From: a virus
Lineage: Duplodnaviria; Caudoviricetes
Direction: 5' to 3' (one strand)
Virus record (IMG/VR): IMGVR_UViG_3300020236_000037
Coordinates: 2,051-66,050 of that record
Length of the DNA stretch: 64,000 nucleotides
Below the pieces are notes generated by a model. That model had not been told where the DNA came from, ran no database searches, and saw only the letters and a list, made by a program, of their open reading frames with translations. Positions 17,517 to 24,223 of the stretch are shown here, in pieces (positions within the stretch are counted from its first letter, which is position 1; every line of letters begins with the position of its first letter). A program made the translations under genes and the position numbers.

Positions 17517-18089
17517 ATGAACTCTGAGCTTCCATTCGAACGTGGGTCTACGTATTTCTCTGGTGTCTCTCTCAGTGACGCAAGCAACCCGTACAGTTCC
17601 GTAAAGCATCTGCTTGGACGAACGTTCTCTGTTCAGAACGATGGGCAGGCAGGGATTGGACACGATCCAACGGAAACTGAGCTTATGGTAGTCCGTAACG
17701 GACTAGGAGCTTCCGCAGGCCCAAACTCCGACGGCACTCTTGACGGCAGTATTGGAGTGGAGTATGGAGCCAATGGACATGAAGCCACGGCACTCGCCTC
17801 CGCCGCAGGATACGGTCATGTTGTAGATGACGCCTATGTGGCTGGAAGTATCCCCAGGTTCGATCTTTTCTACGTCGTGGTTAGGGGCCCGGTCTATTTA
17901 TCATCAACCGACGCGACTCTTGCGAATGGGGAAAAGGCCGGGTTCGGTGCAAGTGGTGCTCTTGCAACCGGCGCTAGTGTGACAGCACATGTTATCGGTG
18001 TGGTTCACGGGGACCAGGACGCCACTGCGCAATCAAATCTTGCCGTAGTGAACGTAGGTCATCCGGCCGGCATAGGGCCATTGGCATAA
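17517..18089 (+). CDS. capsid decoration/cement protein, paralogue 2
   Basis: MNSELPFERGSTYF...VDD...FDLFYVVVRGP. Confidence 0.65.
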   Translation: MNSELPFERGSTYFSGVSLSDASNPYSSVKHLLGRTFSVQNDGQAGIGHDPTETELMVVRNGLGASAGPNSDGTLDGSIGVEYGANGHEATALASAAGYGHVVDDAYVAGSIPRFDLFYVVVRGPVYLSSTDATLANGEKAGFGASGALATGASVTAHVIGVVHGDQDATAQSNLAVVNVGHPAGIGPLA

Positions 18090-18103: not shown

Positions 18104-18628
18104 ATGACTACGGACCTGCCATTCGAACGTGGCTCTACGTATTTCGAAAGCAACCCGTTCGCACTTGCTGAGTCGACCATTGCTTCTGTAGCTCACCTGC
18201 TTGGGAGAACCTTCACTGTAGAGAGCAACCACGAGGGTGGGACCGATACTGAGATAATGATAGTTCATAACGGAACCGGGCTTGTAATCCCAAAGTCGAT
18301 CGGATTGTCTTTTGACAATAACCCATACGATGCAACTGCAGGCGCTGGCGTTAATGCGTATGGTTTCGTGTCTGACGACGAAATGAATATCGACGTTCCG
18401 GTAAATGACCTGCTCTATGTCGTTACGAAGGGACTTTGCTACACGTTAGTTCAATTCGCTGGAACGTTTTCCAACGGCGACCCAATTAAATTCACCTCCG
18501 CCGGACAGGTTGGCCCAGCTGCAGGAACTGGTCATGTCATCGGCGTTGCGCATGGGACTCAAACTGTCTCTACATCTGGACCTTTGCTCGCAAACCTAGG
18601 ACACCCAGCAGCCATCGGGCCGACCTAA
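18104..18628 (+). CDS. capsid decoration/cement protein, paralogue 3
   Basis: MTTDLPFERGSTYF...SDD...NDLLYVVTKGL. Confidence 0.65.
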   Translation: MTTDLPFERGSTYFESNPFALAESTIASVAHLLGRTFTVESNHEGGTDTEIMIVHNGTGLVIPKSIGLSFDNNPYDATAGAGVNAYGFVSDDEMNIDVPVNDLLYVVTKGLCYTLVQFAGTFSNGDPIKFTSAGQVGPAAGTGHVIGVAHGTQTVSTSGPLLANLGHPAAIGPT

Positions 18629-18639
18629 TAGACGACTTC

Positions 18640-18975
18640 ATGGAAAACAAGGAAGCTGACCTGCTGATAGGTCAACTCATAAAGGCAAAGGACAATGCCC
18701 CCGACACCATCGGCCTGTGGGCCAAGGTGGTGGACACGTTCGGGGGTCAGGACAACTTTGCCGTTGCCGCCAAGAGGATCTTTGACGCCTGCGAGGTAGG
18801 ATCTGCACAGCAGGTGCGCATGATGTCGATGTTCTTTGACCTCTGCAAAACGGCAGCTGACAAGGCAGAGAAGAGTGACCCAGTAGATGAAATGACGCCA
18901 GAGCAACTGAGAGCCGCGCTCAATCACTTCATGCAAGAGGCTGTAACTGATGGCGCACGCCAACCCGACGATTAA
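18640..18975 (+). CDS. putative terminase small subunit
   Basis: Small helical protein overlapping the terL start; DEMTPEQLRA C-terminal motif. Confidence 0.5.
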   Translation: MENKEADLLIGQLIKAKDNAPDTIGLWAKVVDTFGGQDNFAVAAKRIFDACEVGSAQQVRMMSMFFDLCKTAADKAEKSDPVDEMTPEQLRAALNHFMQEAVTDGARQPDD

Positions 18976-21844
18976 CGAGATAGCACGAGAGATCAAGGCT
19001 GGCGTGCCGAAGTCAGCAGACCCTGACGCGCCTGTCGGCAAGGTGTACGAAGTCGCTCTCTCGATGCTTCGTTCGTACGCGGAGAGGATGACCGATGCTC
19101 TCGCAATGTACCGTCCAATCTCGCAGGCAGCCGCCGACTTTCACGCATCCCGCGCGTACTGCAGACTGGTTTCGGCGGGTAACCAATGCCTGTCTGCCGA
19201 CCAAGAGATCTATGATCCAGTTGCCGGGGTGAAGCGAAAGGTCTCTGAGATAGATGGCGACTTCCATGTGCTATCGCTATCTGCCGATGGAGAGTGCCGT
19301 ATATCTGCTGCCGAGAAGCCTTTTCTGAAAACGCACGGCGACTTGTACCGTATTGCGTTCGAGGACGGACGTGAGATCGAATGCACACTCGGACATAGGA
19401 TGGTGTGCTCTGATGGGATCGCGAGGGAAGTTGGGGATATCATCCGGGACGAGATCGAAGTTTACTTTGACGAAATTACCTCGAAGTTGGAATGCCGTAC
19501 TTCTTCATTAGGTAGTACACCGTCTGAAATGGGATGTCCTTCATGTCGGCTATCTCCTGAACACGATATTTCCCGACAAGGTCAGCAAGGTCCTCACGCA
19601 TTATCGCAGGAGGACTCCTGTACGCAGATGACAGTGGAACCCTCAACCTCTTTGCTGTCGCTCGAACTGTCGCCGGACTTACGCTGTACTTTTTCGCCAT
19701 GTCGATCTGTCTCATCGTCATGTAACTCTCGCGGAACTCATCGACGTCCTGAGGAAGTTTCTTCAGGCTGTCGACCCCGACCTGCATGTTCGCCTTGCCC
19801 TCCTCCGTCCATTTCGGAATGCGGCCTTTCAGCTCACTGGCGAGGTGCTTCCCGTTTGTCTCAAATAGCTCTAGATTTGACAGAGAATTATTTGAGCGAT
19901 CGCCGTCTATGTGATGAACAACCTCGCCTGGAGAAAGGTATCTTCCGATCTCTTTCTCCATCACCAACCTATGCTCTCGCACATATCTACCGTCCTTGGC
20001 ATGAGGATGATGCGGCGAGTATCGGAGTATATACCCGCTCTTATCAATCGTCGTACCGCCCCTCCAGCCAGGATGGTCTGGACCACTCAGTGGGCCCGTA
20101 CGACGAATCTCAACCCCACTCTCAATCAGCATCCTGCGAACCGTCCTGTCTGACGATCGGAAGCGAGCAGAAATCTTGCCAATTGATACCTTCTCCTCGA
20201 CGTACAAGCGAACAAGTTCTTCGTGATTCACAGGGACACCCTCTTGGCTACAGGCTAAGGTCATCTGCTTGTAATAGAGTAGCGTATTGCAAGCACCTCG
20301 GCAAGGGTGACGTCTGGGATCTGCACGTTCCGGGAGATCAGACGTACCTCATTGGCGGCAGTGTGCATCTGAACAGTGGCAAAACCACGGTCGCGTGCAT
20401 TGAGCTAGCGCGAATCGCGAGGGGTATGGACCCCTACAAGAAGAGGGAATCCAGCAACCTGAGAATCCTCGTCTGTGGCCTGGACGAGATGCACATAGCC
20501 TCCGTTATCTGGAAGAAGCTGTGGCTTCCAGGAGCCTTCTCTATCGTCAAGGATGAGGTCACCGGGATGTGGAGGTCCGTCCGTTCTGACCCAAAAGATC
20601 CAACCGAGATCGACCCAATCGACAAGGAGCGAGAGAAGGACTGGATGCCGGCACCGCCGCTGCTGCCTCCGTCATGTCTGAAGGCGATCGCTTGGAACAG
20701 AAAGAACATGTCCATCCCGAAGACAGCGACGCTGACTAATGGGACAGAGATCATGTTCTACTCGTCAAAGGGATCTCCGCGTCAGGGTATTGACGTTGAC
20801 GCATTCTTCGTCGACGAGGAGACCGTCAACAAGAACTGGATCACCGAGTCTCAGGCCAGGCTACTGAGGCGAGCCGGGATCATGGTGGCCAGCTTCACTC
20901 CTCAAGCCAGCACGCCGGAATACTTCGACCTTCACAGGAAAGCCGTGAACAAGACCGGCGGCATCGAAGAGTTTCAGCTTACGCTCGAAGCCAATCCCTA
21001 CATCTCAAAGAAGGCAAAGAAGCAACTCTACGACGCACTGAAGCATGACCCGGATGAGCTGGCCGTCAGGTACTACGGGAAGTATGCCATCAAGGGGAGG
21101 CAGTGCTACCCTGAGTTCACCAAGGAGATGCACTGCGTCGAAGACTTCGAGATACCCTCGGACTGGATGAAGATCGTTGCCATCGACCCAGGGGCCCGAT
21201 TCCAGACGTGCACCTACATGGCGATCGACCCTGAGTGCGAGAGCGTCCATGTCTACGATGAAACGCACATGGAGGGTGGAAATGCCAGGATGCTTGCAGA
21301 GGAGATCAAGAACAAGCTAGGGGACACGAAAGCCGAGGTGTTCATCATCGACTATCGTGGCGGAATCCAGCGCCCAATGGGGTACTCCAACACGGTTGCC
21401 GACCACTACCAGAACGAGTTCGAGAATATCGGCCTTGAAAGCAGACTGAGCGGGACTGGATTTACGTACGGATCTGACAACGTCAGCGGAAGAGAACAGT
21501 CACTGAAGAGGTGGATGCGGCCTGGAGAAGACTCTCCTCCAATAATCAAGCTTCACCGAGACTGCACCATGAAGACTCAGGACCAGCTGATAAACCGCTA
21601 CTACTCGAAGACTGATCCGTCAAAAAGAGAAGAGAGGGTGACGCATGACCTGGTGGATGTACTGGAATACGCCTGCGCGTATTTTGATGTCTGCATAGGA
21701 AAGAACCCGGCTGGTCTATATTATGAAGCGCCTGATAGAGTTGACCCAAGACAGTCGAAGACGTTCAAGGCATACAAGGAACTGGACAAGTTTTACAAAG
21801 ACGTAGAGCGGAGGACAATGACTGGGGGAATTTTACTCGGATGA
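18950..21844 (+). CDS. terL: terminase large subunit interrupted by an intein
   Basis: Walker A reconstitutes as AGNQ|SGKTT; Walker B FFVDEE; coupling motif SFTP; nuclease IVAIDPG; C-terminal HDLVDVLEY. Confidence 0.92.
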   Translation: MAHANPTINEIAREIKAGVPKSADPDAPVGKVYEVALSMLRSYAERMTDALAMYRPISQAAADFHASRAYCRLVSAGNQCLSADQEIYDPVAGVKRKVSEIDGDFHVLSLSADGECRISAAEKPFLKTHGDLYRIAFEDGREIECTLGHRMVCSDGIAREVGDIIRDEIEVYFDEITSKLECRTSSLGSTPSEMGCPSCRLSPEHDISRQGQQGPHALSQEDSCTQMTVEPSTSLLSLELSPDLRCTFSPCRSVSSSCNSRGTHRRPEEVSSGCRPRPACSPCPPPSISECGLSAHWRGASRLSQIALDLTENYLSDRRLCDEQPRLEKGIFRSLSPSPTYALAHIYRPWHEDDAASIGVYTRSYQSSYRPSSQDGLDHSVGPYDESQPHSQSASCEPSCLTIGSEQKSCQLIPSPRRTSEQVLRDSQGHPLGYRLRSSACNRVAYCKHLGKGDVWDLHVPGDQTYLIGGSVHLNSGKTTVACIELARIARGMDPYKKRESSNLRILVCGLDEMHIASVIWKKLWLPGAFSIVKDEVTGMWRSVRSDPKDPTEIDPIDKEREKDWMPAPPLLPPSCLKAIAWNRKNMSIPKTATLTNGTEIMFYSSKGSPRQGIDVDAFFVDEETVNKNWITESQARLLRRAGIMVASFTPQASTPEYFDLHRKAVNKTGGIEEFQLTLEANPYISKKAKKQLYDALKHDPDELAVRYYGKYAIKGRQCYPEFTKEMHCVEDFEIPSDWMKIVAIDPGARFQTCTYMAIDPECESVHVYDETHMEGGNARMLAEEIKNKLGDTKAEVFIIDYRGGIQRPMGYSNTVADHYQNEFENIGLESRLSGTGFTYGSDNVSGREQSLKRWMRPGEDSPPIIKLHRDCTMKTQDQLINRYYSKTDPSKREERVTHDLVDVLEYACAYFDVCIGKNPAGLYYEAPDRVDPRQSKTFKAYKELDKFYKDVERRTMTGGILLG
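19476..20231 (-). CDS. HNH homing endonuclease encoded antisense inside the intein
   Basis: HPGWRGG...GYILRYSPHHP...YVREHRLVMEKEIGRYLSPGEVVHHIDGDRSNNSLSNLELF with flanking HTH-like segments; likely GTG start at 20231 with an AAGAGGG RBS. Confidence 0.9.
   Translation of the reverse strand: MNHEELVRLYVEEKVSIGKISARFRSSDRTVRRMLIESGVEIRRTGPLSGPDHPGWRGGTTIDKSGYILRYSPHHPHAKDGRYVREHRLVMEKEIGRYLSPGEVVHHIDGDRSNNSLSNLELFETNGKHLASELKGRIPKWTEEGKANMQVGVDSLKKLPQDVDEFRESYMTMRQIDMAKKYSVSPATVRATAKRLRVPLSSAYRSPPAIMREDLADLVGKYRVQEIADMKDIPFQTVYYLMKKYGIPTSR
20276..20304 (-). promoter_or_regulatory. putative sigma70 promoter for the antisense HNH gene
   Basis: TTGCCG-N17-TACTCT on the minus strand; same -10 hexamer as the TTGACA-N17-TACTCT promoter at 39245. 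Confidence 0.55.
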
Positions 21845-22201: not shown

Positions 22202-24223
22202 GTGGAAACACTAGAAGAACTTTCCGGTCTGTGGCTACGGAAGCTGGCAATAGCTAAGCGCCGCAAGCAGGATGAATTCGGACAGTACGCAAATGAAGCT
22301 ATGCAGTTCTACACGGGACCGTATGACTTCCTCTACAAGAAAGCGTACGCAAACACCTCGCTGTCGTTTGTGGTTGAGGGTGTGCGGTCCCCTGCTTTCA
22401 GAATGTCGGTCAACAAAGTCGCTGAACTTGTCGAGCTATTCCTCCCCACTCTCTACCATCAGAACCCCGCCTTCACGGTCGAGCCGAGCAGGATGGAGCT
22501 TGACCAGCAAACCATGATGGGTCTCATTCCTCCCGAGGAAATACAGAGACTCATGATGTCGCAACAGCAGGGCGCACAGGTCCAAGATCCCACCAACAGG
22601 TTCCGCAAGAGTCCAATGGAGATGGCGAGGCTACAGGCAGGGTCTGACCTGACTGAGTACTACCTGAACTCGGCAAGCACTGAGAATGGACTAAGGGAAA
22701 ACATCCGGCAGTCCATCACTGAGGCGCTAATAAAGGGTCGAGGCTTGCAATGGATCGAATTGATCCAGGGTGCAGGCGGCAAGAATGTCGTCGCTAGCCT
22801 GTACGACTCAGTGGACCATCTGTTCATTGATCCTGACGCCGAGGACCTGAAGCATGCAAAGTGGATCGCAAGACGACGGGTGCAGTCGATTCCCGATGTC
22901 TCCAGGAGGTTTGGACTACCCGAGAAGAAGCTGAAGGAGTATGGGAACGCGCTCAGGAAGAGACAGGACAACCTCTCCGAGGATGGAGGGGAGGTCAGCG
23001 TCTACGACAATGATTATGGAGAGAGCTACGAGACGATCGTGTACTACGACTTCTACAGCAGGATGGGTATTGGCGGAGACCTGGCCGGCGTAGACCAGGA
23101 CAAGAAGGAGGCGCTAAAGGACTTTGGTCAACATGCAATGCTGTCCGTAGCTGAGGGAATTCCCTTCCCGCTCAATCTCCCTCCAAGCGCCCTCAGAACC
23201 GAGACGATGTCCGAGCTCAAGGTGAGGATCTCTTGGCCGACTCCATTCTATGAGGATCCTCTTCATCCCTGGCCGTTCGTGAACTTCGACTTCCACCAGA
23301 TCCCAAGGTCTGTGTGGCCTATGTCGCACATCAGGCCGGCGATGGGAGAGCTGAAGGCACTGCAATGGTGCATGAGCTACCTCCTCGGGAAGATCGTCAA
23401 CATCAGCCGCGACCTGATCGTCCTGGACAAGACAGTTGAGGAGGACATCAAGGAGAAGATCATCAATGGCCCTGATCTGACGGTCCTCGAAGTCCCCATG
23501 AGAGGTGGCCAGACGGTAGACAAGCTGATTCAGTGGATCAAGTCTCCTGAGTTCAACCAGTCTATCTGGGAGGTGATAAACGTCCTGGAGAAGAACTTCG
23601 AGAGGCGCACTGGCGTGAGCGAGCTTGCCTTTGGTCAGTCTGGCCGGCAGATGCGGTCAGCCACTGAAGCACAGGTCAAGCAACAGGCTCTCTCTGTACG
23701 TCCAGACGACATGGCGGCCGAGGTTGAGGCTGCGATGTCAGTACTCGCCAAGAACCACGCTATCGCAGCCAAGGTCCACCTGAGTGGAGATGACATCGGA
23801 CCAGTGTTCGGTGAAGTTCCCAGGAAAGGCATGCCGCTTCAGAATGGCGAGACGACGACGCAATATGGTCCGATGACAAACCTATGGATGGACATCTTCA
23901 AGAACCAGGAGATATCAGAGATCGTTTCTGAGTACTCGTTTACGGTAGCCGAGGGTTCTGCCAGGCTAAGGAACAAGGCCGCGGAGCGTGAAGATGCTAT
24001 CCAGATGATACAGAACATCATCCCCATTGCTTCTGGAGATTACCAGCAGTGGGGTGACCCGTCTGTCCTGAACAAGGTCATGGACCAGTGGTACAAGTCT
24101 CTCGACATCCCGGACACTGAGAGAGTGTACTTCACGAACAGGCAGCAGGAAATGCAGCAGATGCAGCAGGCCGCCGCGCAGCAGGATGCAGAGAAACAGC
24201 AACCTCAAGGGACGAGTCAATGA
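22202..24223 (+). CDS. portal protein
   Basis: 673 aa, follows terL; FERRTGVSELAFGQ...SATEAQVKQ clip/stem motif; Gln-rich C-terminus as in P22/T7-like portals. Confidence 0.85.
   Translation: METLEELSGLWLRKLAIAKRRKQDEFGQYANEAMQFYTGPYDFLYKKAYANTSLSFVVEGVRSPAFRMSVNKVAELVELFLPTLYHQNPAFTVEPSRMELDQQTMMGLIPPEEIQRLMMSQQQGAQVQDPTNRFRKSPMEMARLQAGSDLTEYYLNSASTENGLRENIRQSITEALIKGRGLQWIELIQGAGGKNVVASLYDSVDHLFIDPDAEDLKHAKWIARRRVQSIPDVSRRFGLPEKKLKEYGNALRKRQDNLSEDGGEVSVYDNDYGESYETIVYYDFYSRMGIGGDLAGVDQDKKEALKDFGQHAMLSVAEGIPFPLNLPPSALRTETMSELKVRISWPTPFYEDPLHPWPFVNFDFHQIPRSVWPMSHIRPAMGELKALQWCMSYLLGKIVNISRDLIVLDKTVEEDIKEKIINGPDLTVLEVPMRGGQTVDKLIQWIKSPEFNQSIWEVINVLEKNFERRTGVSELAFGQSGRQMRSATEAQVKQQALSVRPDDMAAEVEAAMSVLAKNHAIAAKVHLSGDDIGPVFGEVPRKGMPLQNGETTTQYGPMTNLWMDIFKNQEISEIVSEYSFTVAEGSARLRNKAAEREDAIQMIQNIIPIASGDYQQWGDPSVLNKVMDQWYKSLDIPDTERVYFTNRQQEMQQMQQAAAQQDAEKQQPQGTSQ

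Follow-up and report, generated by a model that had tools for sequence, protein, structure and literature searches.

Inteins whose endonuclease is encoded on the strand opposite to the host gene have been described before. Antisense LAGLIDADG open reading frames (ORFs) occur in the Synechocystis DnaX intein and in an intein of a SpoVR-like protein of Chloroflexus (Gorbalenya 1998; Gogarten 2002; both via bioRxiv 10.1101/2025.01.02.630785). Inteins of actinophages, including some in the gene for the large subunit of the terminase (terL), carry antisense LAGLIDADG, antisense VSR-like, or out-of-frame EndoVII-like endonucleases, and invasion of the intein by a free-standing homing endonuclease has been proposed as their origin (Gosselin, Arsenault, and Gogarten, bioRxiv 10.1101/2025.01.02.630785). 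Here, we analyzed a stretch of 64,000 nucleotides (nt) of the Caudoviricetes record IMGVR_UViG_3300020236_000037 (positions 2,051 to 66,050; hereafter, the window), which belongs to a 66-kb IMG/VR virus record rated complete by CheckV and derived from a hydrothermal-vent metagenome. Its terL contains an apparent intein, and the DNA between the two splicing regions of that intein encodes a predicted HNH homing endonuclease on the other strand. The explanation that we favor for the locus as a whole, with a probability of about 0.78, is a Hint intein in the Walker A motif of terL with a separate antisense HNH homing gene, the two forming an old mobile unit under dual-strand constraint.

The window intein resembles the Synechocystis and Chloroflexus inteins in that the endonuclease ORF lies antisense, flanked by the splicing blocks, and the host frame remains open. 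Those inteins have LAGLIDADG endonucleases and bacterial hosts, and few have been reported, whereas here the endonuclease is HNH, and the intein belongs to a large, mostly phage-borne family at P-loop sites with one fixed offset register. With the non-canonical actinophage inteins it shares a phage setting, an endonuclease in another frame or on the other strand, and filler without recognizable predicted structure. Gosselin et al. list HNH only as an in-frame domain and call such layouts rare, whereas here the HNH gene is antisense and the arrangement is seen in 74 of 76 large inteins from a single family; a statistic of stop codon depletion, which we computed for the present locus, was not found in the passages of their preprint that we consulted. 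Because the endonuclease is of the HNH_3 type and not LAGLIDADG or VSR-like, the window intein represents the same architecture with a different nuclease family. A first-pass annotation of this DNA, made from the sequence alone, had supposed the architecture to be undescribed; that claim does not hold, given the antisense LAGLIDADG and VSR-like intein endonucleases already in the literature (10.1101/2025.01.02.630785). An antisense HNH gene in an intein was not found in the literature that we searched, the coverage of which was limited. The layout of an intein with an antisense endonuclease is thus known, and only its HNH type appears to be unreported.

Other described systems share single elements of the layout. 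In the ShiLan domain, a same-strand, out-of-frame HNH gene lies within a phage DNA methylase gene (Arsenault et al., PMC11855218). There, too, an HNH homing-type gene overlaps a stop-free host ORF whose in-frame reading is a disordered loop, but the gene is in the +3 frame of the same strand, no intein is present, and the insert stays in the protein, whereas the window HNH gene is antisense and its filler lies in an intein that would splice out. In fractured genes, a free-standing endonuclease gene, GIY-YIG or Vsr-like, is located between the halves of a split intein (Dassa et al. 2009, PMC2677866). A free-standing homing endonuclease gene (HEG) in the endonuclease slot of the intein is common to both, but a fractured host is split, by a stop behind the N-intein and a new start ahead of the C-intein, into two trans-splicing ORFs, whereas terL in the window is one 964-codon ORF without a stop, and the frame is continuous in 12 relatives too. 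The HNH catalytic motif and the homing logic are shared with in-frame HNH inteins and with I-HmuI (PDB 1u3e). The known HNH units are in frame with the intein or intron-encoded, whereas here the HNH gene is a separate antisense gene with helix-turn-helix (HTH) modules. The parts of the element, in window coordinates, are as follows.

18950..21844, plus strand: terL precursor ORF, 964 amino acids (aa) including the intein; the spliced product would have 568 aa
19187..20374, plus strand: intein, 396 codons, with boundaries from profile hidden Markov models (HMMs) of the N- and C-terminal splicing parts
19187..19475, plus strand: N-terminal splicing (Hint) region, intein residues 1-96, from AlphaFold2 and Foldseek
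19476..20266, plus strand: in-frame "shadow" linker of ~260 codons without a stop, read antisense to the HNH gene and predicted to be disordered
20267..20374, plus strand: C-terminal splicing region (blocks F and G), intein residues 361-396, ending in VHLN before Ser+1
19476..20264, minus strand: HNH homing endonuclease gene (predicted), 262 codons from ATG 20264 or 251 from GTG 20231; stop codon 19478..19476
20239..20245, minus strand: Shine-Dalgarno-like AAGAGGG, 7 nt upstream of GTG 20231, read from the sequence
20276..20304, minus strand: candidate sigma-70-like promoter TTGCCG-N17-TACTCT inside the DNA encoding the C-terminal splicing region, a consensus match only

The C-terminal 489 residues of the terL product match the PHROG family phrog_2 (terminase large subunit; E = 3e−18), tblastn aligns the protein with phage terminase large subunits at 21 to 27% identity, and a portal-like gene is located downstream (22202..24223). 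The junctions of the insert read ...SAGNQ↓CLSADQEIYDP ... GGSVHLN↓SGKTT (arrows mark splice junctions here and below). The insertion is in frame at a conserved host site, the Walker A motif (AGNQ↓...↓SGKT), and joining the exteins with 19187..20374 removed restores this motif as A-GNQS-GKT. The first intein residue is Cys (19187-19189), as in all 122 relatives delimited below, and the intein ends in Asn396 followed by Ser+1. In an alignment of 11 intein sequences, C1, H70 of block B (T67-L-G-H70), D378, and N396 are invariant. The HMM of the C-terminal part matches the C-terminal splicing region at E = 7.5e−15, and the match of Pfam Intein_splicing to the N-terminal region is weak (E = 0.014). 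In an AlphaFold2 model built on the 11-row alignment, the predicted local distance difference test (pLDDT) score is 91 to 97 for residues 1-90, which are mostly beta strands, and 82 to 97 over residues 361-396 (>90 at 371-396), with beta strands at 365-395. The linker of about 250 residues between them (residues ~110-360) has pLDDT <50 and no secondary structure. Foldseek matched the model to the Mtu RecA, Ssp DnaB, and Npu DnaE mini-inteins with probability 1.00 and a root mean square deviation (rmsd) of 1.4 to 1.7 Å over ~86 columns, mainly in the N-terminal part. Judging from these residues and the predicted fold, the Walker A codons of terL are interrupted by a class-1-type Hint intein. 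The argument that it would splice is an indirect one, namely that terL is an essential gene whose frame has been kept.

Located between intein residues 96 and 360, the antisense ORF matches Pfam HNH_3 (E = 3.2e−11; 43.1 bits, cutoff 24.8) and HTH_23 (27.4 bits, cutoff 24.6), with further HTH matches that are weak, and it also matches many PHROG families of HNH endonucleases (best E = 3e−26). H98, H117, H118, N126, N130, and H140 are invariant among 10 antisense HNH ORFs. The gene is the only copy of this HNH in the 66-kb record and the sole long gene on the minus strand of the window, all 27 other crude ORFs of ≥200 aa being on the plus strand. Its AlphaFold2 model (mean pLDDT 81) consists of an HTH at the N terminus and a beta-beta-alpha core, with two further HTH-like helical modules behind the core; the helical modules span residues 14-48, 174-206, and 223-255. 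The best solved structure found by VIA-align is I-HmuI (1u3e_M; Z = 6.7, rmsd 4.0 Å over 82 residues, 26% identity), a moderate match (Z < 8). Foldseek of the whole model against PDB returned no match at E ≤ 0.001, and a sequence search against PDB chains gave no meaningful match. On the strength of the profile matches, we conclude that the endonuclease is not an in-frame domain of the intein but is encoded by a separate, free-standing HNH gene, probably I-HmuI-like, on the minus strand. The first-pass annotation had proposed both an intein of the form C...HLN/S in the Walker A motif of terL and an HNH endonuclease on the other strand (19476..20231, the version that starts at the GTG preceded by AAGAGGG). 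The ORF reading, the splicing HMMs, the rejoined exteins, and the HNH_3 match agree with both proposals.

The two overlapping genes are offset from each other, with codon position 1 of the host opposite codon position 1 of the HNH gene. In this register, a stop therefore arises in the host frame whenever an HNH codon that ends in TT, CT, or TC precedes a codon that starts with A. Over the intein, the stops number 0 in the host frame and 14 and 19 in the other two plus-strand frames. When synonymous codons were permuted within the HNH gene, 11.0 ± 2.2 host-frame stops were expected; when its codons were redrawn from the codon usage of the window, the expectation was 11.4 ± 2.7. Neither codon test yielded a stop-free shuffle (0 of 20,000), and none of the 45 stop-capable codon junctions in the HNH gene forms a host-frame stop. 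As a control, the 27 other long ORFs of the window, read in the same antisense register, have 4.8 stops per 100 codons (range 2.1 to 7.7), and their longest open antisense run is 147 codons, versus 290 under the HNH gene. Of the three antisense registers, this one has the most stops in these ordinary genes. Over 19550-20300, across the HNH gene, both GC skew and AT skew are inverted, and no Pfam family matches the in-frame translation of the shadow linker.

The same arrangement recurs in relatives. A phmmer search with the 396-aa intein against 1.84 billion representatives produced 156 hits, and 13 loci were examined as DNA: the window; L001, from a scan of IMG/VR for the HNH; L005-L009 and L011-L013, from the phmmer hits; L014 and L015, from the GenBank genomes of the cultured Pectobacterium phage Taid and Pseudoalteromonas phage PHS3, respectively; and L016, picked from the HNH side. 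All 13 have a homologous antisense HNH ORF inside the intein and a stop-free host frame. The HNH ORFs match the window HNH or the family profile at E values of 1e−37 to 1e−70, and the ORF is intact in every locus, at 33 to 51% identity to the window HNH. Position 1 is opposite position 1 in all 12 loci tested for register. Across the loci tested by permutation, 4.1 to 11.7 host-frame stops were expected, the values for the further loci besides the window being 4.1 to 10.2; L016 was judged by its single open host frame of 930 codons. In L001, a very different terL (847 aa) has the intein at the same site, GGNR↓CLGAEQEIYDPV...ISHN↓SGKTQ, and a 243-aa HNH on the opposite strand that is 40% identical to that of the window.

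The HNH ORF of L001 (3974-4705) reaches within 27 codons of the intein N terminus and overlaps the DNA for the conserved N-terminal splicing blocks; the window HNH, in contrast, ends 96 codons into the intein.

Seven loci, aligned over 158 ungapped codon columns, were used to compare selection on the two frames. At positions 1, 2, and 3 of the HNH codons, nucleotide identity is 0.53, 0.61, and 0.35, respectively, the third positions varying most, and amino acid identity over the same columns is 41% in the HNH frame versus 20.5% in the host (shadow) frame. Because of this pattern of identities and the invariant catalytic residues, the HNH gene is seen to be constrained as a protein, and the host frame only against stops. 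Both strands are kept open by selection. The first-pass annotation had already described the frames as offset rather than codon-aligned, the plus frame as open beyond chance, both strands as held open by selection, and the central plus frame as filler. The depletion of stop-creating codon pairs, the shuffles, the loci of relatives, the codon-position identities, and the disordered, Pfam-less linker all bear this out.

The splicing regions define a larger family. Profile HMMs of the two splicing parts delimit 122 inteins among the representative proteins, in which C1, TxxH, the Asp, and the terminal Asn are conserved and S, T, or C stands at +1. Most of them are located at x↓(S/T/C)GK(S/T), and in 81 of the 122 the C-extein starts x-G-K. 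Intein length is bimodal (N = 122), with 44 HEG-less mini-inteins of 121 to 200 aa and 76 large inteins of 250 to 440 aa. A shadow profile built from seven shadow translations matches 74 of the large inteins (~97%), and the HNH profile detected no in-frame HNH in 158 host proteins, save for a marginal match (E = 1e−3) in P0116. At least 151 clusters of HNH homologues (E ≤ 1e−10) have already been called as metagenome genes, and L016, the locus picked from that side, also proved to lie inside such an intein. The hosts of intein and HNH are Terminase_3-type and Terminase_6N-type terL, AAA ATPases, an AAA_25/primase-like protein, and a 3963-aa AAA_34/ResIII helicase-like protein; in one Terminase_6N-type terL, the insertion is at a second site (G.D.D.↓...↓CWFDEE). 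From these sequence comparisons, we take the intein and its antisense HNH to form a mobile unit that is old and widespread, keeps a single codon register, and occurs in unrelated host genes. Homing by the HNH is supported indirectly by the patchy occurrence of the unit among unrelated exteins and by the better conservation of the intein than of the extein. The idea that an inverted HEG was captured is retained in part: a separate antisense HEG does sit in the intein, but an event local to this phage does not fit a unit that is old, widespread, and fixed in register. We also entertain, at slightly under even odds, a broader view in which a large and seemingly undescribed family of phage inteins that target P-loops normally and stably carries its HEG in antisense orientation, and not as a rare accident, with ~97% of full-length members so arranged in one frozen register. 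A promoter of the HNH within the C-terminal splicing DNA would then make the unit portable, and head-on transcription would perhaps time the HNH relative to late terL.

P0116 (898 aa; intein at aa 55-308) is one of the two large inteins without a shadow-profile match and may carry an in-frame HNH. Two of the family's large inteins are present in P0065 (1940 aa, with Helicase_C), one at aa 746-1106 and the other at aa 1255-1613.

Signals that could drive expression of the HNH were sought upstream of its start. In 12 loci, we scored the strongest sigma-70-like site found within 150 nt upstream of the HNH start; the C-terminal splicing region is encoded by this DNA as well. These sites score 8.5 of 12 on average, versus 6.2 in 511 same-strand control windows in host genes (Mann-Whitney U test, P = 2e−7), and scores of ≥9 occur in 4 of the 12 loci versus 1.4% of controls; the enrichment is suggestive only, because the HNH starts were picked by eye. 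The −10 element ends 30 to 33 nt before the HNH start in five loci, and Shine-Dalgarno-like motifs precede the chosen starts in 7 of 12 loci.

We hypothesize that the element works as follows. Ribosomes would read terL straight through the insert, the frame of which is open. The Hint halves are predicted to fold together, with the shadow peptide of ~260 residues looped out as a disordered linker, and the intein would splice via Cys1, block-B His70, block-F Asp378, Asn396, and Ser+1 to give A-GNQS-GKT. An antisense promoter of its own, within the intein DNA, would drive transcription of the HNH, and translation would start at GTG 20231 or ATG 20264. As the first-pass annotation supposed, homing may thereby be uncoupled from terL expression, and antisense RNA might also modulate terL. 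In a mixed infection, the HNH would nick or cut the intein-less P-loop-coding site, and repair would copy the whole unit of intein and HNH. Because a host-frame stop would destroy terL, HNH codon junctions of the form N(T/C)(T/C)-A (the hyphen is the codon boundary; TAA, TAG, or TGA on the other strand) would be purged, with protein-level selection acting on the HNH frame only. Over time, the unit would have colonized P-loop sites in terminases of phages, in AAA ATPases, and in helicases, and loss of the HEG would have produced mini-inteins.

Several observations weigh against this explanation. The penultimate residue of the window intein, the splicing of which is presumed, is Leu (VHLN↓S), as the first-pass annotation had noted, and that position is His in 110 of the 122 relatives and Ala, Ser, Arg, or Lys in the other 12. 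Inteins without a penultimate His are able to splice all the same. The likeness of the HNH to I-HmuI is moderate (Z = 6.7, as given above; Foldseek probability 0.98 but E = 0.13). The promoter candidate, the sequence of which is present at 20304..20276 as the first-pass annotation had it, is weak, with 7 of 12 consensus positions matched, and a Shine-Dalgarno motif precedes GTG 20231 only and not ATG 20264. A search for RNA runs containing the window DNA found none, only the source DNA run from the hydrothermal vent. Homologous terL alleles were sought with partial success. Relatives with the element (L001 and others) were found, as was P0001, a terL with a 134-aa mini-intein at the same site, which is 44 to 46% identical to the window in the splicing regions and only 28% in the C-extein. 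A search of IMG/VR with the C-extein found no close relatives of the window terL, a word-indexed search with the intein region found only P0001, and neither yielded an intein-less allele of the window terL; no homing site can therefore be defined. Last, the 13 loci descend from one ancestor and therefore do not represent independent origins of the layout, although the saturation of synonymous sites makes them largely independent as tests of its maintenance.

Some of these observations would also be expected if the antisense HNH were a relic or silent and the element were a fixed mini-intein with a long junk linker, selected in the host frame only. The missing RNA runs, the weak promoter match in the window, and the missing intein-less allele fit such a relic, and the mini-inteins of the family indicate that HEG loss happens. 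We nevertheless consider a relic unlikely. An unselected antisense ORF of 190 to 330 codons would not remain open, yet the HNH ORF is intact, at the identities given above, in 13 of 13 loci with its catalytic residues invariant; the ranking of identities (position 2 > position 1 > position 3) and the excess of the HNH frame over the host frame in amino acid identity indicate protein-level selection on the HNH; and promoter-like and Shine-Dalgarno-like signals are enriched before it.

The HNH could instead serve phage packaging, for example, in cos cleavage with the terminase, and reside in terL for co-inheritance and not for homing. Small HNH proteins encoded beside terminase genes are required for packaging in some phages. 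Most carriers of the element are terminases, and HNH genes have been described as adjoining cos sites and terminase genes (PMC3592412). A packaging role would not account for the unit in AAA ATPases, the AAA_25/primase-like protein, and giant helicase-like proteins, nor for its patchy distribution across unrelated exteins with HEG-less mini-inteins at the same site, and the protein itself appears to be of the multi-HTH, I-HmuI-like homing type. These points make packaging a distinctly improbable function of the HNH.

How carriers are annotated bears on whether terL is read through at all. In the PHS3 genome (L015; KX912252.1, 664-2787), GenBank annotates the HNH and limits the "terminase large subunit" to the portion that lies downstream of the HNH; the DNA is a single 708-codon frame with both splicing regions, open across the HNH. 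In phage Taid, of the Ymer genus (L014; PQ008975.1, 1122-3386), a 754-aa "hypothetical protein" adjoining the portal gene is terL with the intein, and the antisense HNH is unannotated. The same tblastn match occurs in seven phages related to Taid, six Pectobacterium phages and Dickeya phage Setonix, and a paper on Ymer-genus Pectobacterium phages mentions neither intein nor HNH. Such divided annotations, seen in PHS3 and in L016, would be expected if the halves of terL were made separately and trans-spliced, or if the region were bypassed, and a known precedent exists in fractured genes, where the halves of a split intein flank a free-standing endonuclease gene (PMC2677866). The host frame is, however, stop-free in 13 of 13 loci, far beyond chance, a pattern that is explained only if read-through matters, and we regard production of terL without read-through as very unlikely. 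The layout could also be an assembly artefact, which might be suspected in a window from one hydrothermal-vent metagenome at a modest depth of ~12x, or a normal in-frame HNH intein in which an invertible segment happens to be in the "wrong" orientation; both can practically be dismissed. The first-pass annotation's caution about an artefact is answered by the same layout at 12 other loci, some of them in completely sequenced cultured phages. The contig that a second assembler built from the source run has the identical sequence here, although these are the same data and thus not independent. Flanking inverted repeats were not found beyond short, chance-level matches, and a simple flip of an in-frame domain would not yield a stop-free host frame.

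The locus shows that ~790 nt can be kept open on both strands by two kinds of selection, one at the protein level and the other only avoiding stops, and it offers a clean natural system for the study of sense/antisense dual coding. It extends the model of a free-standing HEG invading an intein to the HNH family, and the layout is common, not rare, in environmental phages. For annotation, the consequence is that automated gene calling and curation either split the host gene or overlook the nuclease, as in PHS3 and Taid. The cultured carriers, phages of Pectobacterium and Pseudoalteromonas, allow direct tests of splicing, antisense expression, and homing.

Similar fragmentation is seen in metagenomic carriers. 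In L016 (1235-4024), gene callers report the host gene as two fragments that flank the HNH on the opposite strand, where the DNA is the one open frame described above, and the gene table of P0172 places an HNH between two opposite-strand fragments, adjoining a portal gene. Shortly upstream of the terL region of the window are two adjacent paralogous ORFs (17517-18089 and 18104-18628; 190 and 174 aa), both of which start with M..(E/D)LPFERGSTYF and end in ...GHPA(G/A)IGP.

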